Assembly: GCF_004010195.1 (NCBI RefSeq)
Contig: NC_057758.1
Span: 5,694,998 to 5,720,645, forward strand
Source of the DNA: Chiloscyllium plagiosum
Lineage: Eukaryota
Reading direction: 5' to 3'
Length of the DNA: 25,648 nucleotides
Part shown: in pieces, positions 365 to 23,097 of the stretch
Position numbering within the stretch: the stretch's first letter is position 1
Layout of the letters: the number at the start of each line of letters is the position of its first letter
Program-made: the position numbers and the translations under genes
Notes under the pieces: model-generated
What the model was told of the DNA's origin: nothing
What the model saw: the letters and a program-made list of their open reading frames with translations, nothing else
Database searches by the model: none

Positions 365-450
365 GTGCTAAAGAAGGGTTACTGGACATAAAATATTAAT
401 ATCTCTCCACAAATGCTACGAATTCTGTCGTAGTTCTGCTGCATTCTGTA
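365..450 (+). mobile_element. Short decayed Penelope-type terminal repeat
   Basis: CTAAAGAAGGGTTACTGGACATAAAA...CTCTCCACAAATGCT resembles the terminal repeat at 5990-6054(-). A further tail fragment lies at about 19915-19965. Confidence 0.45.
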
Positions 451-2104
451 ACATACAGAATGCTCTCACTGTGTTGCAGTGAGAACATTCAGCTTTGTGC
501 TGGCCTTACACTCGTGCAAAATCAATTGTATATCTTTTCTATTCGGGTCATGAAAGCGGTTCTGATCCGCACAGTTCAGAAGTAAATCAATTACGTTACC
601 AAAGAGAGTCAATGAAGTTAGAATTGCAAGTAACTTCCTGAGGCAACAGGTCTCTAAAAACTGGCATTTCCTCGGTTTGTTATAGTTTTCATAGTTTCTA
701 TATTACACTCATCTGCGGAAAGAGCATCTATGTAGGTAATTCGGACGAAAGGGCACCAATAATACTCTGGCAATTGCAAACAGACGTTGAGAGTCGAAAT
801 ACTCATATTTCCACATGTTTACATAGAGACGCTGCCAGTGTTTGATCTATGTAGTCTTAATTGCAATTCTGCCTTCGTAGCACTCTCGGGGCTCACGTAG
901 TAACCTTGATGCTGTTTCATTTTGGTTCTGTTTAATTCGCTGTGCTTGATGACATTGAGGAGCATGAGCTGTATGGTCCCGGAAGAAAATGGCTCACGCG
1001 CTAGTCAACGAGTTTTGTTGATAGGTGCTTTAATCATGACTGGGTAAATGACCCGAAATAATCTGAGGGAGTGCCATGTCGGAGGGGGTTAGATTGAAGA
1101 TTTCAAAGTACTGTATTTTGGAAGTGCATTCACTCAATTTCGCAAACCCTCTGATTTCGTGGTGGAACAATTAGTGTCATGTATTCTCGAGTTTGGTTCA
1201 CAGTTTAGAATCTCCACCACATTCTAACCCCAAAGCTACATCTCTCCCGTTTATGCTTCCCATTTTTTTAAACATGAGAAACACTTTAATGACGAGAAAA
1301 AACATGAAGGAGTGTACGGTCTTACAGCGATGAAGAGAGTCAGAGAGAACCTGAAGTGTAATCTCAAGAATAAAAAATGTCTTACTGTTTGTGATTGCGG
1401 GTAATTTTGACCTGGCATGGTCAACATTGTCAGTGATATTTTTTGGTACCAGATGTATCGTTCGGAATGTCAGTCAATGTCATTACTTTGTGCCAGAATA
1501 GGGCTTCTTGCTGCAGATCCTCAGCTGCTGAACAGAGCCTGCGCTGTATGCTGTGACCCAGACTACATTCAGACAGCAGCTGAAGATTGTGCTGAGTATC
1601 GTCAAATCAATCAATCGTTCAAAAATCACAAATTTAATAATTAAATCCAGAAACGTGTATTTGTTTTTAAAAATTGCAGCAATAACGCTGCCTGTCGCTG
1701 TATTAAATCTCTAAAGGTACTGCTGGCTTGTTTCAATCTTCCAGCACAGGTTATTTGGCACTTTTCGATCTGTCTGCCCACTCTGAGTTCAAAATAAAAG
1801 GGGGCATCATTCGGTAGGTCTGCCATCACGCACACTCTCACTCCCTAAAACAATCTGCTGTCCAATTTGCTTGACTCTCTGCATTCGTCTATTCCACTGG
1901 GCAACTGTATCGCTTCTTCCTTCCTGCCTTCCTCTCCATCATTGTTCACCAACTCGCTATCTCTCCTCATCTCCATTGCTGTCTCTTCTTCCCTCTCGCT
2001 CTCTACTGTCTCGACTGTCAATTTTATCCAACAGCAAATAACAATTCAGAACAGGAACAACCCCTCCGCCCCCAACTCTGTGGTGACAAATTTTACATTG
2101 TATT

Positions 2105-2670
2105 AACTTGCAGGTTCTGTATTTATCCTTTCTCTTTCTAATCATGCATTCCTCCAGTGCTTCTTGAATGCTGCTGTTGTATCTACATCCACACCTCCTC
2201 TGGCCACCTGTTCCAGGCACTCAACACCATTTGCGTCAAAGACTTGCCTTGCAAATCTCTTTTAAAGCTACCAACAATCCTGAAACTCTCTCCACAGCAC
2301 AGCCCCCATTTCCTCCAACGCCTGGAACCTGAGTCGCTTAGTAAGTGGACTCTCCAAAATGTGAAAAAGTGTCCTGAATTCCACACGATCCATGCAATCA
2401 CAATTTGATAAACATCTATCAAGTCGCCCCTCAACCTCCTGCATTCCGTTGAAAACAAAGCCAGTTTGTGCAAACATTCTTCACAGCTAACATTGCCCAT
2501 CCCCCTAAAACGTTATTGCACCGTCGGCAAAGTATTCTGGTAGTGTGGTGAAAAGAACTGTGCGCAATATTACAAGTGTGACTGAACCAAAGTTCGATAA
2601 AATTGCAGCATAACTTGTCTATACTTATATTCTTTGCCCCTTCCAATGAAGGCAAACACACTATGGGCAT
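2105..2670 (-). mobile_element. CR1 LINE 3' fragment, decayed
   Basis: Minus-strand translation includes LALFSTECRRLRGDLIDVYQI and FKRDLQGKSLTQMVLSAWNRWPEEV, matching the CR1 ORF2 C-terminus (LFSLERRRLRGDLIEVYKI / FTQRVV.AWN.LPEEV). Confidence 0.85.
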
Positions 2671-2674
2671 TTGT

Positions 2675-2850
2675 TTTCAAGAATAGGAAGTGCATGCTGG
2701 CGATGGAGCGAGAACAATACAGGATTACAGAAATGATGCATGTTGTTCCGGGTTACGGTATGAGGATTATACAACTTAGCATTTTGACTCTAGAATTTAG
2801 AAAGGTAAAGGTTTGATGGAAATATTCATACTGTCAATGGAGTCGGAGTG
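2675..2850 (+). mobile_element. Short CR1 ORF2 fragment in the opposite orientation
   Basis: RKCMLAMEREQYRITEMM resembles CR1 RKDVLALERVQRRFTRMI. Confidence 0.6.
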
Positions 2851-2932
2851 GGGGGCGGGGAAGGGTGGATAAACATAAATTTATTTTGCGGATTGGTTAT
2901 TATGGAAGTAGTGGACTTTGTATGACATTTAG

Positions 2933-3040
2933 AGCCAGAGATGTTGCGAAGCACTTGTTCACATGGATGTTTGAAACGATCTTGCACAAACAAGAGTGAA
3001 TTCTGGAAGGGTTTTTCGACTTTTGTTGCCCAAAGACACG
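2933..3040 (+). pseudogene. Possible degenerate beta-defensin exon-2 relic inside the duplicated segment (second copy about 24330-24434, - strand)
   Basis: After TTTAG, combining the two copies and allowing frameshifts gives RYCEAL..HGC-LKRS-C-TNKSEFWMS-C-.DF-CC-PK. Cys2 survives in copy 1 and Cys4 in copy 2. Confidence 0.4.
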
Positions 3041-4125
3041 AGGGATTATGGGCAAAAAGCAGGAATTTGGAGTTCGGCAAGAGAGGCAACCCCTATGTCG
3101 GTAATGGTGGAATGTGCATGAAGAGTTCAACCGACTCCTCCTTTCTTGTGTTCATATGAAACTGTGCTTTATTGCATGGAACCAGGAGGTTACTTTGTTA
3201 CTTTTTGTCTCATCAATAACTGTTCTTTGACTTTCAGAGACCGGAGATAATATAACACACTGTGATCTGGAGCTGAAATCTTCAATCCATGCATTTTCGA
3301 CAGAATTAGATTAGATAAGTCTAATCTGATCTTTGACATACTTATTTCAAAACCGTGAGATGACACATGAGCTCCATCCAAGTTTTATTCTTGACACTAG
3401 AGTTAGAATCGACATTTCCGGTGTGTATGCTTACCTTGCGCATCAAATCCATCTATATCCAACCGACCCTACGAAGTAACAAATTCTGTGTCTGAAAAAT
3501 TCCCAATTCTTCCAAATTTCTTGTTTCCTTGAATCATTGGTCTTGAATGTCATGTTGACTTTAATTGGACTGTGCCCAATCTCTCTGCTGAAGAAGTTTT
3601 CCATCGCTGGAATGTCTTTTTGTGAAGAAGCCGTTGCGACTGAACCAAACCATAGGTTCACTGACGTATGAAGAGTATTTGGAATCTTTGCTTTCTACAA
3701 CAGCAAATATGGAAAACATAATGTGGAGGTGGACTACCTTATAAATAATATAAAACACCAGCTTATAGTGCAAAAGGTTTATTTCAAAGAAACCTGTTGA
3801 ACAATAACCAGGTGTTTGATGGTTAATTTTGTCAACATGGGAGAGATTGTAATGCTGATATCAATGCTGCCTTCCAGTTGCGGTTTGCATAATTCTCAAT
3901 GCAGGGTTTCTGCAATTTCCACAGTTTGTGATAATCAGCCAGACTTCCACAGATCCTGATGATTTTTTTTAAAAGATATGGGAGGGATTACGTCATGGTA
4001 CAGTTCTTCAGGGTCTATCCAGAGTTGGAGGAATGATGGTGGGCAATGGATTTGAAATAGTGTCTTTTTCGCTGGCCTGGCATCGGGCTGAGGTAGGCTA
4101 ACTCCTGGACTTCTCCCAAAGGGAT

Positions 4126-4750
4126 TGTTATGGTCCGGTTCATACCAGACAATCGCCAAATAGTTTAAGATTGCTGTCTAAACAGGATGGTTTCCTTATT
4201 TTAAGGCAAATGTAAGGTACCGTGTTCCAGATACGAACTTAATGGTTCAATAAAACAACATTAAGCAAAACGCAATTTATTCAAACACTATCGTTAAAGG
4301 GCAAAGGCCAAATGAAGATCTGAGAATCACTTTAATCCATTGGAAAGTTTAACAGTGTGTTGGATACATTAAATCTTACTGATGAACTGTTCTGATACAA
4401 TAACATGCCATGAACACACCTCTTTGGAAAAACGCAAATTTAGAAGTCTGAGTTCCTCACATGCAACGTTTGCATCAAAAAGAGAAACACCACCTTCTGG
4501 CTGTACACGCAAGCGGGTGAAAGATCTCTTCTACTTCTGCTGAATTTAGGACCTAAAAACAATCTAGAAATCCTAACCTGTGAGACCAGGACCCACCCAT
4601 CCAGGCTACATCTATTGTTCCAACTATTTATTAAACCAAGACTTTACAAGCTATTTACAATACCACGGAGAGTTCTGCGCCTCTGGTTCAATCTATTTCT
4701 AAACAGAAACCACGATACAGTACACATTTTATAGGCATGCCATTATCACA
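4126..4750 (-). mobile_element. Probable solo LTR
   Basis: Bounded by TGTTAT...ATCACA. On the - strand it ends CCATAACA, like the LTR ending at 10640. Flanks GGAT/AGAT resemble a 4-bp target-site duplication with one mismatch. Confidence 0.55.
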
Positions 4751-5054
4751 AGATGGTATCACTTTTCCTCGGGTGGTCTCACTCACAACCGTACCTCTCC
4801 ATGCACATCACTGCCACAAATCAAATGCTCATATCCCTTTTTTATTTTGGGAGGGGTGGGGGGGGGGGGGGGGTCTGGGGCGGTCATTTATACTTTCTCA
4901 ATCACCTCTCTCAAACCTCTCCTCTGATGCCCAGAGGAAGCTACCCTTTCGAACATATGAGCTTGATCATAAGAAGCCTGCTCTGCCATTCAGTAAGTTA
5001 ATGGATCATCTGATTTCAAACTCATCCCTGCGCTCAGTAGCAGCAGTCTGTATA

Positions 5055-5640
5055 AATTAGGCTTGCAATATAAGAGGAGTGGCCACAAGAGCAGGTTGAA
5101 AATACAGAATCCTATAGCCACTCAGTCACTGCCTGTCAACAAAGCCCAAGTCAGGAGTATGATGGAATATTCCCCAACTCCCTGGATGAGTGCAGCTCCA
5201 ATAACACAAAAGAAGCGTTAGTATTCGGGACAAAGTAACCCAATTATTTGGGAAACTCATTTACAAGCATCCATTCCCTAAACCACCAACGCTCAGTCTC
5301 AGCAAGAAATTCGCCAAACATCTTCAGATAGCATCTTCCGAAGCCACGACCACTTCAGGTGGTCTATCTCGAATGATGGGAATGGCAGATACATGTGAAT
5401 ATCTCCATCTGTACGTTCCCCTTCAAGTCATTCACCATTCCAACCTGGAAATATATCACTGATCCTTCAGTGCCCGGAGAAACTACCCTGCAACTGACTT
5501 CATAATTACACAGTCCCTGTACCACATGGACTGCAACTGCTTAAAAAGGCACCTCAGCACCACCCTCTGAAGGAGCAGTAACAATGGGCCAATTCATATT
5601 GTTTCCAGCCAGTGGCACCCCCATCTGTGAAGGAATAAGA
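5055..5640 (+). mobile_element. CR1/L2-group LINE 3' fragment
   Basis: AACAAAGCCCAAGTCAGGAGTATGATGGAATATTCCCCA... translates to KAQVRSMMEYSP..WMSAAPIT.KK, a LINE ORF2 C-terminal motif. Confidence 0.7.
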
Positions 5641-5929
5641 TCAAGTCTTGCTGCTCTGTTTATGTAGATCTATGTTGAGGACAATCAGCTGTTTACTTGT
5701 TTGGACAACGACGTACTTACACATCTTCAGCTAGGATAGACGACCACCATCACTGTCCGACTAAGACATCTGCAACATGGATCATTTTCCACTTGGGAAA
5801 AATAAAACACCAAAAAGATTGAAATGTCAGTCTTAAAAAATTCTCAGTACTTCATTCACCTTTGTATGATATTTGCAGCATCGGATTGTTGAAGGTACAT
5901 ATTAGGAAGGGAGCCCAGACCGACCACTG

Positions 5930-6990
5930 GAGTGAAAGTGAGGACTGCGGCTGTTGGAGATTGCTGTCGTGCGTGTGGTGCTGAAAAGCACACCAGGTCA
6001 GGCAACATTCGAGGAGCAGCAGAGTCGACGTTTCAGCAAAAGCCCTTCATCATGAATGAGGCTGGAAACGTCGGGGGTGTAGAAGTAAATAGGAGGAGTT
6101 TGGGCTTGGGGACGTTAGCTGAGAGTGTGATAGTTAAATTGAGATGGTGCAATGGTGATAGGTCAGGCGGGATGGTAGAGATGATAGGTGAGAAGGAAGA
6201 TGAACAGATAGTCCGTTCATGAGGTGGTGCCGAGTGGGAAGCATGGATCTGGGGTAAAGTGTGGCCGAGGAAATGAGGAAACCTGTGAAATTCATATTCA
6301 TTCCGTGGGTTTGGAGGGTCCCGAGGCGAAGATGAGGCGTTCTTCCTCCAGAAGTCAGGTGGTTAGGGAGTGGCGATGGCGGATTCCCGGGACCTGCATA
6401 TCCTCGGAGGAGTCGGAGTGGGAGATGAAGTGTTTAACCACAGGGCGGTGGGTTTGTTTGTTGTGGGTGCTGCGGATATGTTCTCCGAAGGGCTTTGCGA
6501 TTAGGCATCCTGTCTCCCCAGTGTAGAGGAGACCGCATCTGGATCAATAGATAAGTAAATGACATGTGCAGAAGAGCAGGTGAAACGTTGATGTATGCCA
6601 AAGGCTCCTTTGGAACATGGATGGAGATGAGGGAGAGGTTGGGCGCAGGTTTTGCAAAAACTGCTGTAGCAGGAGAAGGTGCCAGGAGGAGAGGATTGCT
6701 TGGGGCGTGGAAATAATGAGCGAATCGTGGAGCCAACATTCTTTCTGGAAAGCGGCAAAGGGTTGGGCGGGAAAAATATATATGTTAGTGGCATCCGTTT
6801 GTAGGGGGCAGAAATGATCGACGATGTTGCAATGGATACAGAGGTTGGCGAGTTGGAAGGGAAAGACTAGGGTGTTGTTTCCTTCGTGCAATCGAATGGT
6901 TAGTGTTTGAGGGCGGAGCTGCAGGAAGTGGATGAGATGCGCCGGAGGGATCATCATCCACGTCGGAGGCAAATTGCGGTCTTTAAAGGA
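5930..6990 (-). mobile_element. Penelope-like element 3' fragment (GIY-YIG endonuclease + terminal repeat), decayed
   Basis: PGTFSCYSSFCKTCA...HQRFTCSSAHVIY, the Cys-rich linker and GIY-YIG start of Penelope-like elements. The terminal part carries a hammerhead-like core at 6026-6054. Confidence 0.85.
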
Positions 6991-7304
6991 GTGATATAGC
7001 TGTCAAACCACATATTTCTAAACAAAACAGATTTTTCGAATGAAGCACGAAAGTAAAAAACAACAGAATATAGAATATTTTGCCCGATCTGCAAACACAA
7101 CCGAATCTATCGCAGCTTAATCAGAAAGTTCCAAATCCCAGCAACATTCCAATAACATACCCCATTGGCAAGAATTCAAATTCAAACATAGGTCCTTACA
7201 GGAGAGCTGTCGGAGAGAGAATAAGCATTTACATTCTTTTCACTGCAACTTTTCTTTGGATTCTCAGCTAAAACATACACCAAAGCAGAAGCAGACATGA
7301 TCTT

Positions 7305-7447
7305 GAAGAACTAGCCACTAACCTCCCATTGGACAAGTGTTTAAAAACACCTGAAAACGGTTTCCCTGATGGTTAATTTGACTCGTATCTGACAGCCATT
7401 AGCAAAGACCCAAACCAAACAAATTGGACCATCTGCCTTTTAAAACC
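7305..7447 (-). pseudogene. Beta-defensin paralogue C, degenerate exon 2
   Basis: Strong acceptor TTTTTCTCGTTTTCATTTTTCAACAG. TGT TTG GTT ..GGT CTT TGC (C L V..G L C) resembles CLVQGGIC, and TGT CCA ATG GGA GGT TAG TGG (C P M G G * W) resembles CEHGGFCC. Multiple stops and indels. Confidence 0.5.
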
Positions 7448-7766
7448 CTGTTGAAAAATGAAAACGAGAAAAATGTAACCTTGCCCAAGGAACAGCATGA
7501 ACAGATATTCGACAGGCACATCAAACTCCTTGGTGAAAATAAAGTGCTGCTGGATGATTAAAAAAACACTTGGAAATTTCTACTCCGCAGTTGGTAACTT
7601 GCATGAGGCTTGGGTTTTAAATGTTAATGAACAAAGATTGTTTGTCAGGTTAGGGCACACATTTAACCTAAATTTATTTGAATATCACCAGAAGATATGC
7701 GGGTGTTGTATTTTCTCCACTTCTTCATCCCTGAAAGAAGTCCCTGTACGTAAAGATATACACTCG

Positions 7767-7848
7767 CATTCAGTAAAGTATCTTGCACTCCAGCAGTAAT
7801 GGGTTGCATCGACAACAAAGTTCAAAGGAGTAAAAGCAAGGCTTTTGT
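7767..7848 (-). pseudogene. Beta-defensin paralogue C, dead exon 1: (T)KALLLLL*TLLSMQPITAGVQDTLLN
   Basis: Codon-level match to intact exon 1 (AAA GCC TTG CTT TTA CTC vs AAA TCA CTG CTT TTG CTC; CAA CCC ATT ACT GCT vs GAA CCC ATC ACT GCG). The start codon reads ACA, there is an internal TGA at 7824-7822, and the donor-like site reads GCGAGT. Upstream AAATAAAGAGCTTCTGCCTTCC matches the intact TATA motif. Confidence 0.75.
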
Positions 7849-8489
7849 TGAATTCTTCGTTACCAGTTGTATTCACCGGAAGGCAGAAGCTCTTTATTTT
7901 CTATCATTCATTATCGCGTTCTCCCTTACGGGCACATAGACACACTAACACAAGCGTGCTCATGCACAAACACACACACACGCAGAGGGCTAGCTCCAAC
8001 GCGAATCTGTTAAAGGGACTGTTCAGTCACGGAGATCTGCAATCAAGGAACTCAAAGAAAACGTAGATCTTCCTTAGTTGAGGAAGTGGGTTGAACGGTA
8101 TTCTGTGGGATGTCTGCTCTGAAACAGAACATCCCCAGGATGGTGACGAACGAGGACAATGCATTGTGTGTAAAATATTATTCCGCTACGAGGAATAGTC
8201 GAGCGACCACATTTCAAACGGGCCCTCGGAATCTCTGTGCTGCCACTCTCCTGTTCACACAAAATACGTCGATCGGATTCAGAAAGTAAAGGTAATCAAA
8301 AGGCACTATTCAATCCAGTAAGCATTATTAAATTTATCCTGAAATCACCGAATCAAGGGGCTGCGGTTCCACCTGATCTATAAGTGCCTGAATGACAGAC
8401 ATCGCTATCACCATAACTCAGACGATTAAAGGGATCACGCTGTGTGCGGAGGGGGTGGAGGTTTGCCACCTTCTGTGTTGTGCCACTCA

Positions 8490-8601
8490 TTACTTGATGC
8501 AGCAACGATCCTCACATGCAACGATCCTAACATGCAAATACTTTGGCTTCTCATCCGCCGTTGGATGCGACAGAACAACATCTTCCTGAGGGATACGGCG
8601 G
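8490..8601 (-). pseudogene. Beta-defensin paralogue B, degenerate exon 2
   Basis: Acceptor TCCATTCAG. Reading with frameshifts gives (R/C)RIPQGRC-CSVA-(S/C)-NGG*EAKVFA-C...DRCCIK*. It contains a 16-bp tandem duplication (TTGCATGT[T/G]AGGATCG) and a stop. It lies just downstream of the same 51-bp minisatellite that precedes exon 2 of the intact gene. Confidence 0.55.
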
Positions 8602-8619
8602 CTGAATGGATTTTGGGAG

Positions 8620-9470
8620 GTGAGAAGTGTACAGTGCTCCCAGTGTTTTCTGCCCGATGCAGATTAGGGCCTGAGGTATCCACACTGCTCGCGGTCTGGT
8701 CTGCATAATATATTTGGAACCTAAAGTGTGCAGAGTGTTCCCAGTGTGTACTGTCAAACGTATATTGGGACCTGAGAAATTCACAGTACTCCCAGTGTGG
8801 TCTGCACAATATCGTTTGGGACCTGAGGAATGAAAAGTGCTCCCATTGTTGTCTGTCCAATGTAGATTGGGACGTCGGGACTATACACTGCTCCCAGTGT
8901 GGTCTGCTCAAAGTAGGTTTGGACCTCAGGATTGCACATTGCTCACAGTGTGGTTTTCTCCGTCTACATTGGTGTATGGCGATCACAGAGAGTGGCCTGC
9001 TAAATGTAGATTTGGAATTGAGGATTATGCAGTGCTCCCAGTGTGATCTATCCAAGGTAGATAGGGACATAAGAATCGTACACTGCTCCCAATATGCTCT
9101 ACTAAATGCAGTTTGGAACTGAGGATTACGCAGTGATCCCAATGTGGTCAGTCCAATATAGACTGGGACGTGAGATTTACAAACTTCTCCCAGTGTGGCC
9201 TGCTCAAAGTAGGTAGGGAACTCAGTATTACATAGTTCTCACAGTGTGGTTTTCTCAATATAGTTTGGTGCATGACGATTACACAGTGCTCCAAGTTTGG
9301 TCTGTCCAATGTAGATTGGAACCTGAGGATTGCACACTGCTGCTAGTGTGGTCTGCCCAAGGTAGGATGAAACCACAGAAGTGCACAATGTTCCCCTTGA
9401 GACTATCAAAGCTGGGGAAGGCGAAGAAAGGTAGACACTTCTCCCAGTGTGCTCAGCCCAAGTCACATGA
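8620..9470 (-). repeat. About 51-bp minisatellite (~17 units) derived from the CR1 'VRPHLEYCVQFWSP' motif
   Basis: CTCCCAGTGTGG-like cores recur every ~51 bp on the + strand (e.g. 8789, 8840, 8891, 9187, 9441). The - strand ORF shows a 17-aa period (LSRPHWEQC.ILRSQST). Confidence 0.9.
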
Positions 9471-9589
9471 GACTTGAGTGGATAAAAAGGGATTAGCACA
9501 AATCGAATCATTGATGATTAAGTTATAATGTCTCATATGATTTGTTGTGGTAATACATGAAAGATGATTTTCATAGCGAATCAATGGAA

Positions 9590-9903
9590 TAGATATTAGG
9601 AGCAAGAGACCAACTGCTCTCTTGAAGTGGCACGAGTCATGGCAGCTTTCGAAGAGGAGAGGGTAATAGATAGTGTAATGGTGGGATATTTACAGATGAC
9701 GTCTCTGGATGCTGAAGGCATGCCACAAATGGTGAACTGGGTCAAATCTGGGAATGTGCAGGAGTGGAAATTGTTGAAGCATGGGATATCAGGGAGGATG
9801 TTTGAGCTGAAAGTAATGGAGATAAGGAGAAACTTCATCAGCCAGAGAGCACTGAGTCAATAAATTCATTGCCACCGAAGACTGTGGAGGCTAGGTCACT
9901 GAG
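9590..9903 (+). mobile_element. CR1 LINE 3' fragment, left part (interrupted by the LTR element)
   Basis: GAGATAAGGAGAAACTTCATCAGCCAGAGAG...AATTCATTGCCACCGAAGACTGTGGAGGCTAGGTCACTGA is the CR1 ORF2 end (EIRRNFISQRA..SLPPKTVEA). Confidence 0.75.
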
Positions 9904-9904
9904 G

Positions 9905-12900
9905 ATCGATATGAAGTTGAAGGTGGGTACTGTGGCTTTTAGAAAGTGAATGGTGTTTTGTACTGAGAGCTTACAAGCACTTGTCATGCGATTGACTTCC
10001 AGTCCCAGATTGTACTGGAAAATTGAAAATATGTAACATTTGGCTGTGAAACAAACACCTGATTTGGTTGCTATTTTGACAACAGTACACATTTAACCAA
10101 TCAGGTTAAACTATGCACCCGGATAGTAAAACTCAATCGAGTTTGCGTTTATTGTTTTGCCAGCATTGAAGCAATACGACGATCCAGTTTTGCGGGATCA
10201 AAAAAAGATAAGCAGTTTGAAAGTCAGACAGAGCAACTGCCATATGAAATACTCGTTATCAAAGGTATCTTTCCACATGAAACGTACTCACAGTAAAAGA
10301 CAGAAGTCGACCCAGGGAGAACGTCTTACCAAAGGAAGAAAGACAGCAAAGACCACCCTCTGTATGGCTCTGCAATAAATTGCTGTTAGTTTTTGTCAGT
10401 GTTTTATTGGAACAGTATATTATTATAGGTTTGTAAGCAGATAACAAGCAGGTGAGGGTTGATGGGTGTGATTAGAGTTGTGCATAGTTGTGTTCCTGTT
10501 CACATTTAGAGTAAAAGTATACATTCTTTTTTCATGGTGGAATTTGGGATTTCTATGCCACTCAAAGTTTAAAAGATTACGAGGGGAAGTGAGTATCTCT
10601 GGGCGGTTGGTTCATTTAACAAAAGTGTTCACCCATAACAGTTTGGGGGCTTGGGTCCGTGGCTTGGGCAGGTGTTGACAGATATAGTCTGAGGTTTGGA
10701 CAGATTTAAACATATTGGGAAACGCATAATGCCAGCAGATTTAAAGAATTGACGATTAGTGTCCTAGATCTTTAAATAAAACGTAGGTGAATTATTTATT
10801 TAATCTCGGTTACTTGCGATTAGTTAAGTGAAAAGTAAACGAAAAATGGGTCCGAAGGTCAGCGAGTTTTGAGATGATTTGTACGTCAGGTTGAAGTTTC
10901 GGATAGAGTTTTGCTCGCTGAGCTGGACCGGTTCATGTTTAGATATTTTGTCAACGTCAACGTGAGCGACAAATCTTCTCAAACGTCGCTGACATCTGTG
11001 GGCGGAATATGCTAAAACTGGACCGAATATGAGAAACGAATGCCATCTGGCAGAGTGCCACCCGCGAACAGCTGTTATTGCTGCACAAATGCCTAAGATA
11101 ACAGGCAATACCTAAATGTCTTAAATACAAACATCCCCTTAACATTCCTGGACCTAAAAGAATAGCAGAGCAAAACTATCGCAGAATGCTTAGAGAAAGG
11201 AGTAATGATCCTCACAACAGATTCCATAAATACAACGGCGAAAATTTGCACCAAAAACTTTACTCACTCGTGCAAAAATCATGAATGGACAGACACAGTG
11301 CAAAAAGCCATTGATATTATATAGCGACAAACACAGACAACGAAATTAAAAGACCGGCAAAGAAAAATTGGACAGACTTTCACAAAAGGAACAACACTGA
11401 CAACATGGAAGCATGGATAAACAAATTCTCTGACCGACCCTTAACAAGCACTGATAAGGCCGTCTTAGTAAGAGAATAAAATTACAACTTCCAGGATTCG
11501 GACAAGAAAGATTTATTTGCCGCATTAGAAACAACACTGAAAGGCAACCAACACACAGGAGAAACCCAGCAAATTATCAGACAGATAGTCAGACCAACAT
11601 TAAGAGGACAAAAAAGCAAGGTAACACCCTCAATACGTAAAAAAAAAAAAACTAGATCGACTAAAAAATGTAAAAATATTGTTATTCAATGTGCGATATT
11701 ATCCGATGTGCACACTACTTGCAGATACCAACACTAACCAACAAGTGTCGATAGAACGACCCCACAATTAGCGAACCGAATCACAGCCCTACTCAAAAAA
11801 TCTTTAGAAATCTGGAGAAATAAGTATGACCGACATCAAAAAAATGAAACCAAAGGATCCAGCACGACATGCTTCGATGGATTACTCATAATTCACAAAC
11901 CAGGAGCCCCCATCACACCTGGAATACCAATTTACAGAATAGTCAAGGAGCTACACCAAAGATTAAAACACTTAGCAGAATACTCACACCACTCCATCCA
12001 CTCTACCCAAGAATTCCTGAAGACAGTCAAAGACACGAAACTGGAAGAGGTTGAAATAATGGTCTGCTTTGATGTAATTGACCTGTTCACATCAATCAAC
12101 ATCAGCCTGGCCACGGAAACACTGCCGACATTATTAGAAGACCCGAAGACACACACACCAAACTCTACCGACTTCATCAGCAAAGACAGTATCGGCAAGC
12201 TAGTGGACCTATGCCTTACCACCGACTTTACCTTCAACAACAAAACCTACAGACAAACCAACGGAAACCCATGGGATATCCGCCATCAGAGTTCTCAGCA
12301 GGGACAGTGATGCAGAGTCGAACAAATTGCTCTGCCTGCCATCCAACTCAACCTTTGCATTCGCCAGTGGATGACACCTTTGCCATCACTAAACGACACA
12401 AATTAGAGGAAACCTTCAAGACCATCAATAATACCCTTACTGGCATAAAATGCACTAAAGAGTAGGAAAACAACACCAGACTGCCTTCTCTAGATATGCC
12501 AATAGAGCGAAAAGCCAATGGGGAACTTCAAACCACGTGTACAGGAAAACAACACATACAGAACAAATAATAAACTGCAGAAGCAACCACCTCAACATCC
12601 ATAAAGGAAGCTGCATCAGAACATTATTCCAAAGAGCCAATACACCCTGCCGCACAGAGAAACTACGCAGAGCAGAGGAAAATTGCCGAGACAGTCTATT
12701 CACAAAGAAGAGATACCCAATGAACACGGTACATAGACTTCTAGCAACAAACCCAAACAAGCAAACAAAATATGTCCCGAAACCGTCGACACGCTCCCCT
12801 ATAAGAAAGACGTGTCAGAAATGACTTCCAGACCACTCAGACGCCTTGGCGTCATGGTAGCCCAAAAACCCACCAACACTTGAACAGCAGCTAATGAACT

Positions 12901-15900
12901 TGAAAGACCCTATACAGACAACAAGCAAAACTAACATCCGTTCCAAAATTCAGAGAAACAACTGTAACAAACACTACATTGTGCAAACGCTGAGAAAACT
13001 GGCCACTCCGATACATGAACATCAACTCGCCAGAAAACGACATGACACTCTTCACTAATGTCTTCACACTTAGATGAGGAAGCACGCCACTTTGACTGGA
13101 ACAACTCATTCATCCTAAGACAAGCCAAGCAGAGACGCGCACGAAAATTACGACAGGCATGACATTTCAACCTAACCTCTATCAATAAACACATTGCTAT
13201 GGATCCTATTTACCACCCCCTGAGAAAAAGAACAGGAATAGACATCACTGTAGGAAACGACAGCACCACAGTAAATGACATCACCAACACAAAGAAACCC
13301 ATCACTTAAATAAAATGCAGGAATCTTCAGCAATATTTTGTCCGGAGACACCCTGAAGATGTTACCTCGTATGGTGACAAAGGATCGGAACATGGCATAG
13401 CGAGCAAGCCTACATCCGGGTTTCAGCATTGCCGAAGGCATCCTCAGGTTTGAAGATGATCCCTGAGTTTGCCAAGGCAGAAGGCGGCCATACTTATGGA
13501 TTTGGAAAATAGATTAGAATTGAGTCTAACTAGATTCAAAATGAAAGCTGAATACGTAATTGAATTAGTCAAGCACTTACGTGTATCAGGGAAACAGGCA
13601 AGTGCAGTTGTTTTAGAAATGTTTAAGATGCAACTGAGGCAAATGGACTGAGAAGATAAAGAAACAGAGAGAGAGAGATGGGGAAAGATACGAGGGAGAG
13701 AAACATAGAGAAGAGAAAGAGAGAATTGGAGAGGAGAAACAAAGAGAGAAGATTCTTAGCTGTGCAAACAGAGCGAGAGAAGGAAGAGAGAGAATGAGAG
13801 AGAGAATTTGCACTTCAGAAGTTGGAAATTGTCAGGAAAGAGAAGTTACCAGAATGGAGTTGATCAGAGAAGGTAGCGATCTCTAAAAATATCTTTAAAT
13901 TGCCACATTGTGATGAGAATGATGTCAAAACCTTTCTTTCGTTTGAAAACGTGACTCAGCAGATGAAGTGGTCAGACGACATGAGGGTAATGATTATTCA
14001 GGCTAAGCTGGTCGGCAAAGCTAGTGAAGTATTTGCAGCGCTTTCAGATGAGGTGTCAAGTGTTTTTGCAGATGTCAAACAGGCTACTTTGAATTATTAT
14101 GAATTGATACCAGAAACCAAGAGAAAGTGGTTCAGAAACATAAAGGAGGAACCAGGTTAGACTTACACTGAGTTCGCAAGAATTAAAAAAAAGTTTTCAT
14201 AGATAGATGCAGATCTTAAAACTAGATAAGAGTTTTGAGGATCTAAGAGAGATGATTCTTCACGAATTTTTTAAAAAAACCTCACTTCCAGAGGGGATAA
14301 GAATTCACGTGGATGAACAGAAACTTCAAGAAATGAGCAGAGCAGCAGTGATGATAGGTGAATATGCGTTGATACATAACGCAAATTTTAGATTTCGGGA
14401 AGAATTTCATCCTGTGAGGGATACAAATTGGGAGGACTGAAGATCCTCCACTACAAAATAAAAATTAGAACACATGGTAAAGAGTTTGCCGCAGAAGAGA
14501 AAAGAGGCCCATGTCGGTGAAAAGGAGTTGAAAGATAGAGGTGTTTCCACTATAATAATATGTGATGTGTAATGTTACAGTGCTTCACGTAAAATACATT
14601 CTCTTTGTGAAATGACGTGGTGAAGAGGCTTCTCCAATGGCAGTAGTGAAAGTAGTAAAGGAAATCCCAAGAGACATCGATTAGCTGTAGGAGAGTTCAC
14701 GGCATAGGCAGAAGCAGTATTTGAGGTAGTGCCTAATCACCATAAAGACTACAACTTCGGGATAAAGTTTGTTCAGAAAGAACAAGGATGAAGATAAATA
14801 AGATATAATTTTGAGAAATACAGGATATAATCAAGTTCAAATAGTAAGAGATGAACACATGCAATCTTTCTGACCTGTAAACTGAGAGAGTGGTCGTTTG
14901 TGGGATAGGTGTACAGTAATTTGGCGTTTCCCTAAGTAAGATCAGGTTGGAATGCCAACACAATTCTGGCGAATTACCAGTGGGAATCAGTGACAGAGTG
15001 TAATTTCTGGGAATGTAATTTGTTCTTGTAAACGATGTATGAGGATCAATGATGGGAGTGGCAGCCCTTACTGTGGTGAAGCCAAAGGTAGACCAGAGAA
15101 CTTAGGAGGTACAAGAAACAAACACTAGAAATCTGCCAGCCTGTGTATGAACAAAATCCAACAATGATAATTCTCTGGAGGAAGCAAAACCTGAACGGAA
15201 AGACGACAGGAGTTGAGCGTTAGTTCGCGGACACACTGCTTGAGGTAATACTGAAGGAAAAACCTGAACAGGCAGAGGATGAGGCAGAAGTGTTGAGGCC
15301 TTAAAACCTGTTGGATCTACATCAGAAAGAAAGCTGGGTGCTGTGTGTGTGCGCGCGCGTGTAAGCATCACAGGAAAAGATTCACATTGTATTCCTAAGG
15401 GGTTTTATATGACATAGAGAATCTTAAGACGAAATTGGAAACCACGGAATGTTAGCGGAGAGGGGGAAAACAATTCGAAATTAACCAGTCAGTATAATGT
15501 ATGGTCCAGAGTACTAATACCCAATCAAGTTTGGATTAATTATTTTGTCAATATCGAACCAAGATAACCATCTGGTGTTGAGAATATTAAAAAACAGACA
15601 GTTTGAAAGTCAGATAGTATAACTGCCATTTGAAACACACTCTATCAAAGGTACCTTTCCAAATGAAACACATTACATTAAGACGACCCAGGGAGATGTC
15701 AGCTGAAGGAAGAAAGACACCAAAGACGACAGCTGCTGTTTGGATTCCAATTAAGTTGACATAACTTTAATCAGTGTTTTATTGGATCAGTATAATATTA
15801 CAGAGTTCGAGACAAATAATAAGCAGTGAAGTGAGGGGGCAAGAGATGTGCATCGTTGTTGTTTAACAATCACTATTAGAGATAAACAATGTATTATTGT

Positions 15901-16022
15901 TATTCTCATTAAATGGTGCAATTTGGAAGTTCTCTGTCACTCATATTTAAAAAAAATACGAGTGGAGCTGAATTTTCTGGGTGTTTGTTTTAAGTAACAG
16001 AAGTGTTCAAGGTGTGTCATAA
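9905..16022 (+). mobile_element. Gypsy-type LTR retrotransposon with SCAN-like gag (Gmr1-like), internally deleted and decayed
   Basis: Diverged direct repeats at about 10090-10640 and 15478-16022. The 5' LTR ends CATAACA and is followed by TGGGGGCTTGGGTCCG, a degenerate tRNA-Pro primer-binding site. Gag remnants at 13460-14600 (FENVTQQMKWSDD..IIQAKLVGKASEVFAALS..VKQATLNYYELIPE; FEDLREMILHEFF) and protease-region remnants at about 14760-15150. No RT or integrase core seen. The left boundary is approximate. Confidence 0.85.
10860..13430 (+). mobile_element. Penelope-like retroelement (RT + GIY-YIG), near full length but frameshifted, inserted in the LTR element
   Basis: RT motifs MVCFDVIDLFTSI, FTFNNKTYRQTNG.PMG, VDDTF, YRKTTHTEQIINCRSNH, CIRTLFQRA. 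GIY-YIG remnant at about 12930-13200. Terminal repeat at 13340-13430 with an inverted copy at 10862-10960. Confidence 0.9.
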
Positions 16023-16185
16023 TTGAATACGAAACACTGAGATATATAGTTAGTTGAGCATTAAAGGGATTTAAATAAAGCAGGTGCAAGGAATTACATA
16101 CTTATCAGCCATGGTTGAATGCAGGAGCGACTCGATGTGCTAAATGGCATAAATTCTGCTCACACTTCTTATGGTCTTATGGTCT
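16023..16185 (+). mobile_element. CR1 LINE 3' tail, right part
   Basis: TATCAGCCATGGTTGAATG...GACTCGATG...AATTCTGCTC...CTTATGGTCTTATGGTCT is a CR1 3' UTR with its short terminal repeat; it continues the fragment ending at about 9903. Confidence 0.8.
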
Positions 16186-16324
16186 GGAAGGGAGAGAGAA
16201 CATCGGAGGATATGAAAGTATATTAACCTCGATGGTGCTGCATTTGCACAGGTGTCAGGACGTGAATGGCGTCTTCTCTTTCTCAGGAAATTGAAACCAG
16301 TCGTGCACGGTGAGATAAACTCAT

Positions 16325-16424
16325 GCCCCACAAGATCAACCAAGGGCACAACACCAACAGCAATTATAGTCTGTACCAACACTAGTGGCAGGCACACAAA
16401 CAGAAAAGGCAACATCTTCCTCAT
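16325..16424 (-). pseudogene. Beta-defensin paralogue B, exon 1 (signal peptide MRKMLPFLFVCLPLVLVQTIIAVGVVPLVDLVG); splice donor apparently decayed
   Basis: LVLVQTIIAVG aligns with LVLVEPITADG of the intact gene. Upstream is TAATAATAAGCTTCTG (16482-16467), resembling the intact promoter. The exon ends GGG C|ATGAGT, a phase-1 GTGAGT donor with a CpG-type G>A change. Confidence 0.7.
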
Positions 16425-17155
16425 TCATTCCTCTTCCCCTCACAGATACAGTGACCTTCTGGAGAACAGAAGCTTATTATTAATGGACAGAACACACTGG
16501 TTTATACTGACCTCAGTCTCATTAAGTTTCGCCCTACGTTGGAAGAGTTAAAGGGACAGTTTACACACCAAGAGCAGCAGTAACTGGGAGCAGGGCCTAC
16601 ATGTGAGCTCCCACTCTGTTCTTTAATAATATCACGCTCATAGCTGGGTTTCGTACAGGAATGATTCCGATCTCAGGCAGAATTGTGGCTTGATCCACTT
16701 CATTTTGTTTGTGTTCAATGTAAAATGACATTTTTCACTGATGCATCAGCACGCAGTGCTGCAACATTGGATTGAGCATTATCGTTCAAAGGTGTGTCGT
16801 GATTAATGCATTTAAATACAGAAGAACTTTCGCCATTCGGCGCAAAATGTCACTGTTAGTTCTTTGTGGTAGAGCAAAAAGAGCAAACACTGGAATGATC
16901 GGCGAAATATTTCCCTTTACTAAAATAAACAATACGTACATATCCAATGTGAAAGTTTGCTGTAAACCTTCAGCACGTCAATTAGTAAACAGTTAGGTTT
17001 CTCTGTTCACTGAGAAGTTACTAATTGACAGAAACGCTTAATCTTTGATTCCAGCTACATTTGGTATTCGTGAAATGACTTTATAATGAGCACAGCGTGG
17101 ATCCAATCTTCAATTTTGAATTGTGATTATTAACGACAGTGTAGTCACTCATCTG

Positions 17156-17176
17156 TTATAAAGAGCCTCGGCGTTC
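17156..17176 (+). promoter_or_regulatory. TATA box / core promoter of the intact beta-defensin gene
   Basis: TTATAAAGAGCCTCGGCGTTC, about 60 bp upstream of the ATG. Related motifs sit at similar distances upstream of the paralogous exon-1 copies. CCAAT at 17103. Confidence 0.7.
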
Positions 17177-17217
17177 AAATTACATTACCATGACTCTGAA
17201 AGACTGTATAGAGAAAG

Positions 17218-17308
17218 ATGAAATCACTGCTTTTGCTCCTCATCGTCCTGGTGCTTGTCGAACCCATCACTGCGGATGGAGAATCGAGACCAAGGTTCTT
17301 CCTTCTCG
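17218..17308 (+). CDS. Beta-defensin, coding exon 1 (signal peptide + short pro-segment: MKSLLLLLIVLVLVEPITADGESRPRFFLL[A])
   Basis: ATG at 17218 in AAGATG context, about 60 bp downstream of TATAAAG. The peptide is M-K, a hydrophobic core, then I-T-A, typical of a signal peptide. The exon ends CTC G|GTTAGT, a near-consensus phase-1 donor that joins exon 2 in frame (G+CT = Ala). Confidence 0.9.
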
Positions 17309-17912
17309 GTTAGTACATTTCTCTGAAAAATAATTGTAGTATCATCAATTCCTCAAGTGTTGGCTGATTTGTATTGTAATTTGAGTGTTTTTTAGTCTTC
17401 TTTCAATCAGCCCAGATTCTCATTCCTCCCTGCTCTGAAATGATGTTACAGTGTCATTTTGGATAATCTTCGAAGAACTGTTCGATTTAATGTGCTACTT
17501 ATTTACCCACAAAATCTATCCAACAAGAAGATGTCCTTAGCTGCATTGTTTACACGTTGAATAGAGAAACGTTTTCAAATGTCTGTTTGACCCACCCCTG
17601 ATCTCTGCACTGTCCTTCAGTATCGACAACATTTCTTGATACTCTTGCCACTTTAATTGTGAAACGCAAACTTATCTAATTCTGATGAATCCAAGAGATC
17701 AGACAGTATGTCAATATTTTTTTCAGATTTTGTTCAGTTTCCTGAGCATAGAGCTGTGGAATGTGCTCCACATAAATGCAATCAATTATCTCAAAGATTC
17801 CTTGAAATCAATCATGTTAGAATATTTCCTTTTTGAATAACGTACTCGTATATCTCCTTATGTGTTTTTTTCTTTCCATATGAAAGAAGACTTTACATAT
17901 GAAAGAAAACTA

Positions 17913-18545
17913 GTCGACATTTCCACGGTTATCTCATATGGGATCACCGTGGACAGTTCTAATCCTTATATCATTCAGTGTGACACTACTTCGAGCACTG
18001 TGCATAGTGATACCTACGATTTCCCTTGGCAACTTTATAACACTTTAAACCGTTATCGTCTCGTTATCCCTCAGTTACACGACACTGAAAGCACTGTGCA
18101 CAAAGATGGACGAGATTTCCCTTCGGTTAGTCACAGTGGAAGCAATGCGTACTTGTCTGGTCTCGACATTCCTTACTTCGTCCAAACTGCAAGCACTGTG
18201 CTCTGTCCTTGACGACATATCCCTTAGTTTGACTATACTTTATTCACCGAATATAGATATGGTCTCAATCTACCTTGGTAAGACCACACTGTACATAGTT
18301 CTCGACGCCACATCCCTCAGTTCGACGACAGTAGGAACACCACACCAATCCTAAGAGTACTTACTCACTGAGACCCATTGGCAAGATGCAGACAGTTCTC
18401 ATCTCTATCTCCCTTGATAAAACATCACTGGGAGCACTGGGCACTGTTCTCATCTTTACATCCCTTGGTAAGCCTACATTGGGTGTACTGTGCACAGTTC
18501 TGGCGTCCATCTCCTTGATTGGATCACACTGGCAGTGCAGATACA
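17913..18545 (+). repeat. About 51-bp CR1-derived minisatellite (~12 degenerate units) in the defensin intron
   Basis: Recurring ATCCCTTGGT...AGCACTGTGCACAGTTCT units; contains CACTGGGAGCACTG, also the core of the 8620-9470 array. Confidence 0.8.
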
Positions 18546-18638
18546 TTTATGCTCGTCATGTTTCCTGGTTTGATGACACACGGAGGACAAATTGTCCCTG
18601 CTGGAGACATCAGTTAAGTATATCTTTCTGTTTTACAG

Positions 18639-18757
18639 CTTCCATGAAATATTGTTTAGTCCAAGGAGGAATTTGCAGGCGTTCCCTTTGTCTTCCACAT
18701 GAAATTCCTTCCAGTGGGTTTTGTGAACATGGGGGGTTCTGCTGCCAGAGAAAATGA
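18639..18757 (+). CDS. Beta-defensin, coding exon 2 (mature six-cysteine domain: ASMKYCLVQGGICRRSLCLPHEIPSSGFCEHGGFCCQRK*)
   Basis: Acceptor TCTTTCTGTTTTACAG|CT. Cysteine spacing is C-X6-C-X4-C-X10-C-X5-CC, with G-G-X-C before Cys2, Glu four residues after Cys3, G-X-C before Cys4 and a basic C-terminus, matching the vertebrate beta-defensin signature. Spliced CDS is 91+119 = 210 nt = 69 aa + stop. Confidence 0.93.
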
Positions 18758-18888
18758 ACGCACAGTATATAAATCTGAAGTGAGGCCCGTCTGAGGCACC
18801 AACTGTTGCACACTGTTACTTCTATTGACCGACTGTGTTCCATTGTGTGGATCCAATGAATCTGACTTCCTGCTTTGTAAATCGTATC

Positions 18889-18894
18889 AATAAA
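18889..18894 (+). terminator. Polyadenylation signal (AATAAA) of the beta-defensin gene
   Basis: First AATAAA after the stop codon, about 130 nt downstream, followed by T/G-rich sequence. Confidence 0.65.
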
Positions 18895-19217
18895 ATTCGT
18901 TGCAATGTATTTGTACAAGCTCGAGTCTTTCATTCATTTGATCGGAGAGAGGGGAGGGCACAAAAACACTGGCAGAATCTTTCATAATTTGCAGTTCAAA
19001 CTGTGTCATCCTCATCTGTTGGTCTTGTCCTCCACAACGTAAAACAACGGGGATACACTGTTGGAGAAGATTCAGCACTCGATTCCATTCTGGCTTTGGG
19101 GTTTGAACCGCTATCACCGTGGAAGTTTCCGGTTCTCCAGTGACTAGTCGAATTGATCAAGGTTTGAAAGCAAACTTTTGCCTGCAGTTCGTGGTGAGAG
19201 AACCAGCAGAAAGGGAA

Positions 19218-22597: not shown

Positions 22598-23097
22598 NNN
22601 NNNNNNNNNNNNNNNNNNNNNNNNNNNNNNNNNNNNNNNNNNNNNNNNNNNNNNNNNNNNNNNNNNNNNNNNNNNNNNNNNNNNNNNNNNNNNNNNNNNN
22701 NNNNNNNNNNNNNNNNNNNNNNNNNNNNNNNNNNNNNNNNNNNNNNNNNNNNNNNNNNNNNNNNNNNNNNNNNNNNNNNNNNNNNNNNNNNNNNNNNNNN
22801 NNNNNNNNNNNNNNNNNNNNNNNNNNNNNNNNNNNNNNNNNNNNNNNNNNNNNNNNNNNNNNNNNNNNNNNNNNNNNNNNNNNNNNNNNNNNNNNNNNNN
22901 NNNNNNNNNNNNNNNNNNNNNNNNNNNNNNNNNNNNNNNNNNNNNNNNNNNNNNNNNNNNNNNNNNNNNNNNNNNNNNNNNNNNNNNNNNNNNNNNNNNN
23001 NNNNNNNNNNNNNNNNNNNNNNNNNNNNNNNNNNNNNNNNNNNNNNNNNNNNNNNNNNNNNNNNNNNNNNNNNNNNNNNNNNNNNNNNNNNNNNNNN
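22598..23097. other. Assembly gap (500 N)
   Basis: Run of exactly 500 N; a round size suggests a placeholder scaffolding gap. Confidence 0.99.

Follow-up and report, generated by a model that had tools for sequence, protein, structure and literature searches.

The 25,648-nucleotide stretch of Chiloscyllium plagiosum DNA analysed here (the window) carries three related promoter and signal-exon units, called A, B and C, and raises the question of how one live beta-defensin gene came to stand beside two dead ones. A sequence-only reading had described a birth-and-death cluster in which the units at 17218 (+ strand), 16424 (− strand) and 7848 (− strand) were each followed by an acceptor and a Cys-pattern exon (18639+, 8601− and 7447−, respectively), the first unit alone being intact. 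It is very probable that A is an intact shark gene, spliced in one public run, whose product is likely a secreted peptide of host defence, and that the repeatedly duplicated block around it carries in B and C two units that were likely dead before duplication began.

The relatedness of the three units was borne out. When promoter and exon 1 are taken together, none of 1000 dinucleotide-shuffled controls reaches the observed score for any of the three pairs (z 7.2, 4.1 and 5.4). With exon 1 alone the signal is weaker, the score being reached by 7 (A-B), 1 (A-C) and 413 (B-C) of 1000 shuffles.

Gene A and its splicing

Gene A (17218-18757, +) proved genuine: it is a beta-defensin gene of two exons, with a precursor of 69 codons. 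Its TATA box (TATAAA) is located at 17157..17162, and its exon 1 (17218..17308, 91 nt), which codes for the signal peptide and a short pro-piece, ends at a phase-1 donor, GTTAGT. The mature domain is encoded by exon 2 (18639..18757), which follows an AG acceptor and was recognised by Pfam, the structural model and Foldseek, and the poly(A) signal (AATAAA) is at 18889..18894. The intron contains a decayed 51-bp minisatellite (17914..18531, +), and the B intron has a homologous one (z 12, 0 of 300 shuffles).

The beta-defensin identity of A is upheld by the Pfam match to PF00711 (24.3 bits, cut-off 21), the fold, the phase-1 intron and the six-Cys motif C-x6-C-x4-C-x10-C-x5-CC, a beta-defensin spacing that ends in CC. 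The mature domain has a net charge of +3. The N-terminus, composed of Met-Lys and a hydrophobic core (mean hydropathy 3.97 over residues 4-14), is a predicted secretion signal. Of five AlphaFold models, a single one reached a confident score (pLDDT 81.5, versus 52-67 for the other four); it has three strands, at residues 12-14, 22-25 and 34-38. Foldseek ranks hBD-1 and hBD-3 highest for this model (probability 0.95-1.0, E 0.07-0.2, with no match at E 0.001), and the nearest solved structure is hBD-1 (TM 0.63-0.66). Gene A is thus predicted to fold like hBD-1, as a three-stranded defensin. An Rfam search gave no match, and Pfam gave none in 40 scanned of the window's 95 long open reading frames.

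Gene A is spliced in one public run, X1, in which the joint 17308>18639 (GT..AG) has a depth of 532 and shows no differences across 148 exon-2 letters. Depth in X1 is 758-13,185 in exon bins versus 42-120 in the intron; these depths pool paralogues at ≥88% identity and, like the joint, come from assembled contigs of a single run of unrecorded type. At position 17206 every X1 contig differs from the window, which reflects either an allele or a paralogue. Exonic reads of A were absent from three other runs (X5, X6 and X7), two of them single-cell runs of which about 2% and 6% were read; these do not constitute a test.

Relics B and C and the block that carries them

Relic B lies head-to-head with A on the − strand. 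Its TATA box is at 16501..16506 and its exon 1 (16325..16424) has an open frame of signal type, the donor being AT instead of GT at 16323-16324. The exon-2 relic (8487..8601, −) is frameshifted and stopped, with only a CC-x-K-stop end recognisable. It is preceded by a minisatellite of 14.6 copies (8601..9462, −) with the same 51-bp unit as the one before A exon 2. The B intron also contains an old insertion (10078..16009, +), bounded by direct repeats of ~550 bp that are 69% identical (10078-10631 and 15466-16009), which we take to be LTR-retrotransposon-like. A further insertion is nested inside it (~10858-13466) and is absent from the paralogous blocks L106 and L116, while the whole B-intron insertion is missing in L110. 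The blocks L103, L104, L106, L110 and L116 are free of the window's insertions, and in them B exon 1 can be connected with the 8601− relic.

The profile of B exon 1 retrieves the first exons of open genes on scaffolds C45, C46 and C50, and the C profile retrieves many first exons; both exons are classed, by sequence similarity, as homologues of defensin signal exons. For B exon 2, position and the CC end agree with descent from defensin mature exons and weakly suggest it. None of 21 copies matches the exon-2 DNA profile or keeps an open six-Cys frame; protein profiles give at most 9.8 bits, versus 4.7 for reversed controls.

Relic C (promoter and exon 1, 7755..8050, −, with the exon-1 unit at 7848) has no ATG and carries an in-frame TGA at 7822-7824, which is present in 23 of 23 alignable copies. 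No exon-2 profile match was found within 6 kb downstream of 25 C copies, as far as these were fetched. The supposed Cys exon at 7447− was ruled out as the second exon of C. It scores z −1.3 against A exon 2 and 0.8 against B exon 2, is not matched by a DNA profile built on open defensin exons, and lies inside part (7037..7498, −) of a dispersed element of ~670 bp, solo-LTR-like, with TG...CA ends and an internal AATAAA, which occurs at 12 places on nine other chromosomes among 45 matches. Of the three acceptor and Cys-exon pairs originally proposed, that of A therefore stands, that of B is weak, and that of C is a genome-wide repeat; the exon-1 copies are not. A is the only intact unit, since B has lost its donor and has a broken exon 2 and C is stopped and lacks an ATG.

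A, B and C could be three sibling genes that arose by local tandem duplication, B and C having died here separately, each with its own Cys exon. The kinship of the three promoter and exon-1 units and the link between B and the 8601− relic agree with this, but the lesions are common to copies down to ~70% identity, and what had passed for exon 2 of C is a dispersed repeat. Among 31 copies the B donor is AT in 27, TT in one, a gap in one and GT in two. Both GT copies stand outside the cassette, and neither is a live B-type gene: the exon-2 relic is stopped in one, and exon 1 is stopped in the other. Local death is thus largely refuted and highly improbable, and B and C are regarded as passengers because 29 of 31 B copies have lost the donor and all 23 C copies that can be aligned carry the same stop.

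The block itself can be followed through the genome. Where the flank is long enough to tell (32 A exon-1 copies), B lies head-to-head beside A in 23, and the two are nearly always separated by 730-840 bp. Over 17 blocks, distances in the A intron are correlated with those in B (Spearman 0.64, 0 of 2000 permutations). Within the window, the downstream part of the block (1723..4274) has a 92%-identical inverted copy at 23098-25647, beyond a 500-N gap (22598-23097). B and C were likely dead already when the block began to be copied (at least 23 times) and have travelled with it as passengers. An ancient inverted duplication would have given rise to A and B, as promoter similarity and the common intron minisatellite suggest. 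The donor of B would then have been lost, as would the start and exon 2 of C. Later, on a small chromosome rich in repeats, blocks tens of kb long would have multiplied, both in tandem and in inverted orientation, with selection keeping or diversifying A in some copies and decay prevailing in most. If so, pseudogene counts overstate how often genes have died wherever dead ones multiply as passengers.

B might still be alive, either as a single-exon secreted peptide translated by read-through or as part of a bidirectional regulatory region of A. In the window its frame runs open through 94 codons, and 14 of 31 copies have at least 79 open codons (one of them running into an N gap), and the near-constant A-B spacing would suit a regulatory role. 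However, the read-through tails vary in frame and length, with no conserved tail; the ATG is missing in six copies and a stop occurs within 28 codons in nine; no Pfam match was obtained; and X1 depth at B exon 1 (80-108) is within the intron background. Survival of B is considered improbable, and B is treated here as a dead passenger.

The defensin family and the fate of A-type copies

The cluster extends beyond the window, as had been anticipated: the scaffold of the window (C49) has at least 33 second exons of defensin type across 7.8 Mb (1.1 to 8.9 Mb), and seven further scaffolds also carry some. In 1.47 Mb of targeted DNA, at least 134 second exons were counted, at least 64 of them open, mostly on the smallest chromosomes. 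Searching the genome with the Pfam family proved insensitive (28 matches, many of them noise), and therefore single peptides were used as queries. A word-index protein search with ten peptides gave two candidates, neither of which was scored.

Most of this number could come from haplotigs and uncollapsed alleles, the true family being small. Unplaced contigs hold 76 of the 134 exons, among which alleles or gap fill may be included, gaps interrupt C49 copies (exon 2 falls in N gaps in two of them), and the 134 exons shrink to 101 clusters at 97% identity and to 71 at 95%. Nevertheless, 51 clusters are left at 90% and 35 at 80%, at least 58 exons, 31 of them open, are placed on eight chromosome-scale scaffolds, and 34 open peptides differ by more than 10%. 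That the high copy number is mostly an assembly artefact is very unlikely, and the family is taken as large. Most of the open peptides are 18-58% identical to A, and 17 of the 34 distinct ones match PF00711 at E≤0.1. Cys spacing is 6-4-10-5 in 61 of the 64 open exons, with x11 in the other three, and charge ranges from −2 to +7.

Of 24 A-like loci with both exons, seven or eight are intact, the eighth having a doubtful donor. The broken copies differ in their lesions, which include stops, frameshifts, and donor, acceptor and Cys losses. A-type copies therefore form a birth-and-death family in which intact and independently broken paralogues lie side by side, so that this part of the original proposal holds, whereas B and C, whose lesions are common to cassette copies, are not separate local deaths.

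Sequence comparison indicates that the mature peptide of the window's lineage changed 2-4 times faster than flanking DNA. Replacements amount to 17-20 of ~90 sites, versus ~6% in the flank. The rate ratio is 2.9-3.8 with two near outgroups (Fisher p 1e-5 to 6e-4) and only 1.9-2.5 with a far outgroup (p 0.004-0.064), in trios that are non-independent, have pseudogenes as sister copies and use a 3' flank that may itself be constrained. Pairwise dN/dS against distant intact copies is ≤1.

Flanking genes of the tetrapod type, which had been expected, were not found. CTSB propeptide matches are on C9 only (two of two), with no defensin match in the surrounding 30 kb, and C49 has none of 21 XK-related matches and none of 14 TLC-domain matches, a search that cannot single out TRAM2. 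No match of CTSB, XKR or TLC-domain type thus lies on the scaffold of the window, which, like the other small scaffolds, could be an unjoined piece of a larger chromosome.

Comparison with known systems and the role of A

Tetrapod beta-defensins (PF00711 and PF13841; hBD-1 2nlq, hBD-3 1kj6, duck AvBD3 7lzl, chicken AvBD2 2lg5) likewise have a signal and a mature exon separated by a phase-1 intron, and their fold is similar to that predicted for A. The A motif falls within the avian range C-X4-6-C-X3-5-C-X9-10-C-X5-6-CC given in PMC11874394. The near-fixed shark spacing, 6-4-10-5, differs from the 6-4-9-6 of hBD-3. The avian CTSB-AvBD-TRAM2 cluster resembles the shark family in its clustered paralogues, lineage-specific expansion and pseudogenes, and the same source describes its evolution as birth-and-death. 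However, it reports for birds one cluster of 66-200 kb, with seven pseudogenes among 354 genes, compared with the 7.8 Mb and seven additional scaffolds here, where about half of the exons are broken and amplification was by multi-gene blocks with dead passengers.

Teleosts have a few beta-defensin genes per species. The few genes of teleosts and lungfish contrast with dozens of open exons in this shark. Antibacterial activity is reported for fish beta-defensins (PMC6795676) and four beta-defensin genes are expressed in lungfish skin (PMC10138462); the former, a 2019 review, names beta-defensins for bony fish only and presents shark antimicrobial peptides as little studied. No paper on cartilaginous-fish defensins was found in a search whose coverage stopped short of subscription journals and supplements (e.g. 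gene-family tables of shark genome papers). To this background the analysis adds evidence of splicing, the cassette with its passengers and the burst in rate.

The sole shark sequence among three matches at E≤0.001 in 1.84 billion representatives is C. punctatum GCC16467.1 ('hypothetical protein' in NCBI, 'Beta-defensin' in UniRef). It belongs to another subfamily found in this genome, and its model lacks the signal exon, starting within what is intron here. It has an open six-Cys frame, while the nearest copy here, at C49:3.48 Mb, is 84.5% identical and stopped. The idea that relatives keep different members alive is thus suggestive, the two being paired by identity only.

By analogy with the family, A would be secreted by its signal peptide, freed of its pro-piece and closed by putative disulfides 1-5/2-4/3-6, and is predicted to have a membrane-directed antimicrobial or chemotactic action. 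Host defence is moderately favoured as its role; a reproductive-tract role is doubtful, and other signalling more so. Many mammalian beta-defensins are epididymal, and A could be expressed for reproduction or signalling (sperm coat, epididymis, receptor ligand) and not for killing microbes. Its modest charge and the GPR139-like receptor genes on the same scaffold fit such a use, but host-defence genes, too, typically combine a fast-changing mature domain with a signal exon that is conserved. The lungfish genes are expressed in skin (PMC10138462). This alternative is regarded as rather unlikely, and host defence is kept as the working role of A.

On balance, sharks would seem to have one of the largest vertebrate beta-defensin repertoires, of at least 100 loci on the smallest chromosomes, unlinked to CTSB/TRAM2, which grew by the copying of multi-gene blocks with ancient dead genes and by bursts of positive selection that made new peptides such as A, and which catalogues have nearly all missed. 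If these dozens of peptides are expressed and fast-changing, large beta-defensin repertoires would no longer be confined to tetrapods, and the shark family would offer concrete candidates for barrier immunity, including salt-tolerant peptides.

Gene A: structure, splicing and rate of change

The window occupies positions 5,694,998-5,720,645 of C49, a scaffold of 9.98 Mb in a genome (G000) of 3.56 Gb. Its intact defensin gene, gene A, is a new member of the known beta-defensin family, with transcript support. Exon 1 (17218-17308, + strand; 91 nt, donor GTTAGT) and exon 2 (18639-18757, + strand) together encode a precursor of 69 residues, and are accompanied on the same strand by TATAAA at 17157 and AATAAA at 18889. 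Exon 2 scores 24.3 bits against Pfam Defensin_beta (cut-off 21) and among PDB sequences it matches hBD-3 best (E 0.012); Atlas returned Defensin_beta clusters (0.87), a lead only. One of five AlphaFold models was confident (pLDDT 81.5); it shows three strands, and its top Foldseek rows were hBD-1 and hBD-3, at E 0.07-0.2, no row falling under 0.001.

Four public sequencing runs were compared over window positions 16000-19200. Run X1, which consists of assembled contigs whose type is not on record, contains a joint that omits exactly the predicted intron (GT..AG, depth 532), with 0 differences over 148 exon-2 letters, and depth is 758-13,185 in exon bins versus 42-120 in the intron. Since the nearest paralogues differ in exon 2 by 1 and 2 coding positions, the contig fits the window's gene A or an allele. 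This splicing evidence comes from one run, in which paralogues are pooled, and every X1 contig covering 17206 differs there from the window. Exonic signal at gene A is absent from X5, X6 and X7, which is no test of expression.

Rates were compared in 15 sister/outgroup trios. In the 10 trios that use either of two near outgroups, the window's lineage shows 17-20 replacements over about 90 sites against about 6% change in the 3' flank (ratio 2.9-3.8, p 1e-5 to 6e-4); with the far outgroup (5 trios) the ratio is 1.9-2.5 (p 0.004-0.064). The 3' flank changed equally on both lineages. This comparison, made over non-independent trios, is suggestive of positive selection on gene A in the window's lineage.

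The related units B and C

The sequence-only reading had proposed three related promoter and signal-exon units, A, B (16424, - strand) and C (7848, - strand), each followed by a cysteine exon, the last two being dead. Its observation and its interpretation both stand in part: gene A is upheld, and the second exon of C is not. The relatedness itself is borne out, as each pair of promoter plus exon 1 scores above 1000 of 1000 shuffles; the introns of A and B also have a 51-bp minisatellite in common (z 12).

The stretch at 7447 (- strand), taken for the cysteine exon of C, is unlike the second exons of both A and B. Matches to it occur at 12 places on 9 other chromosomes (with one unplaced contig, 13 of the 45 matches listed). 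The seven that were read define an element of about 670 bp whose ends are TG...CA and which contains an AATAAA. It is thus an interspersed repeat, the kind of match which the earlier reading had named, for the exon-1 copies, as contrary to it, found here for this stretch. In the DNA retrieved for 25 copies of C, no second exon was detected.

For B, the stretch at 8601 (- strand) is plausibly a defensin exon relic, judging by its position and its CC-x-K-stop end, with weak statistics. The distance from B exon 1 to this relic is much shorter in paralogous blocks; in the window the intron measures 7.7 kb, enlarged by an old insertion, which we take to be of LTR type, with a nested element. Pfam gave no match in the 40 window ORFs scanned, out of 95. 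The insertion (10078-16009) is bounded by direct repeats only 69% identical; a primer-site-like stretch (about 10642) follows the first and a purine tract (about 15459) precedes the second, features that mark it as a very old LTR-type insertion. Block L110, which is free of it, already has the dead donor of B, so B died before the insertion.

The cassette holding A, B and C is repeated in the genome: A exon 1 has at least 40 matches there, A exon 2 at least 41, B exon 1 at least 34 and the C region at least 45. B stands head-to-head with A in 23 of 32 A-like first exons (43 in total; the other 11 have too little flank), and over 17 blocks A-intron distances follow B-region distances (Spearman 0.64, 0 of 2000 permutations). 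The B donor reads AT in 27 of 31 copies; of the other four, one has TT, one a gap and two GT. Both GT copies have no adjoining A and are broken in other ways. No open six-cysteine frame was found among 21 copies of B exon 2. All 23 alignable copies of C share the in-frame TGA and lack an upstream ATG, two further copies being truncated. Separate fates for B and C, as earlier proposed, do not agree with lesions so shared between copies. Since identity among these copies falls as low as about 70%, the simplest reading is that B and C had already died when the block began to multiply, and they would be ancient passengers of the cassette.

Just upstream of the window, at C49:5678611-5694500 (L147, L148), lies a tandem repeat of window 415-16012 at about 93% identity; it stops at an N gap, leaving its A gene out of view. 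Mid-chromosome on C9 (57209500-57215000, L164), a piece corresponding to window 3995-9061 (B exon 2 and C, about 75% identity) is either a translocated copy or a misplacement. Other defensin subfamilies also carry a decayed first exon head-to-head with, and about 700 bp from, their own first exon (C49:3294042, 5481726 and 5910618; C101012:41754), suggesting that the divergent pair layout may predate the A/B cassette.

The defensin repertoire and its setting

Of the 24 A-like loci in which both exons are visible, 8 are intact (7 if a weak donor is discounted), in a set where two rows have one common exon 2 and one row is cut by a contig end. The others have differing stops, frameshifts, and splice-site or cysteine losses, so that the proposed birth-and-death dynamics hold for A. 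Seven of the 24 are placed on C49, where the window's A alone is clearly intact; two more A-like loci there have exon 2 inside assembly gaps.

Iterated profile searches of 1.47 Mb of targeted DNA gave 134 second exons. In 64 of them the six-cysteine frame is open, which is not proof of a gene, first exons having been checked for a minority; a reversed-sequence control on the 1.27-Mb set had no match at 8 bits. The 134 exons fall into 101, 51 and 35 groups at 97, 90 and 80% identity, and cysteine spacing is 6-4-10-5 in 61 of the 64 open ones. Placement was possible for 58 (31 open; 76 unplaced): 33 on C49, of which 0.66 of 9.98 Mb was read, 10 on C50, 8 on C46, 2 each on C8 and C45, and 1 each on C27, C39 and C43. 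The cluster therefore continues beyond the window, as had been predicted. The exons on C39 and C43 are open. Near the tip of the large chromosome C8, a two-exon defensin that looks intact and has a shorter first exon (333481-335980, L338) lies 9 kb from a decayed copy (344939, L391).

A profile of 34 distinct peptides, compared with 1.84 billion representatives, matched 3 proteins at E<=0.001, including one from a shark; that library therefore contains almost nothing of the family. The shark protein, the closest public match to the defensin profile, is a Chiloscyllium punctatum record and has an open frame where the nearest copy in this genome has stops. No description of a cartilaginous-fish defensin was found in the literature searched (subscription journals and supplements being outside its scope), nor in the available parts of PMC6795676, PMC11874394, PMC10138462 and PMC10707392, the last mentioning defensins there solely in a carp reference. 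The size, location and dynamics of this shark beta-defensin repertoire are notable, and no paper on them was found.

Flanks of tetrapod type, suggested earlier as a check, were not recovered: the CTSB propeptide occurs on C9 only, with no defensin match within the 30 kb read near it, and none of 21 XK-related or 14 TLC-domain matches falls on C49. Fifteen samples of 10 kb each, taken at the ends of C49, contain retroelements, GPCR pieces and one further decayed defensin (100 of 587 ORFs scanned, pooled with five samples of C8 and C9). The GPCR pieces lie at about 0.8 Mb (L380:6678-7232) and 0.2 Mb (L376:1789-2220); the former matches the 'GPR139-like' family, which is expanded in sharks and skates (572 matches), and all 119 named top matches of a C49 GPCR piece are from sharks or skates, which together with the Chiloscyllium punctatum record points to a shark as the host. 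At about 9.65 Mb, L387:6276-6689 weakly matches Pfam TLV_coat (retroviral env; 24.7 bits). Elsewhere, 2,149 bases are 99.95% identical between C34 (7.88 Mb, L161) and C1 (21.13 Mb, L162), through either recent duplication or an artefactual duplicate in the assembly.
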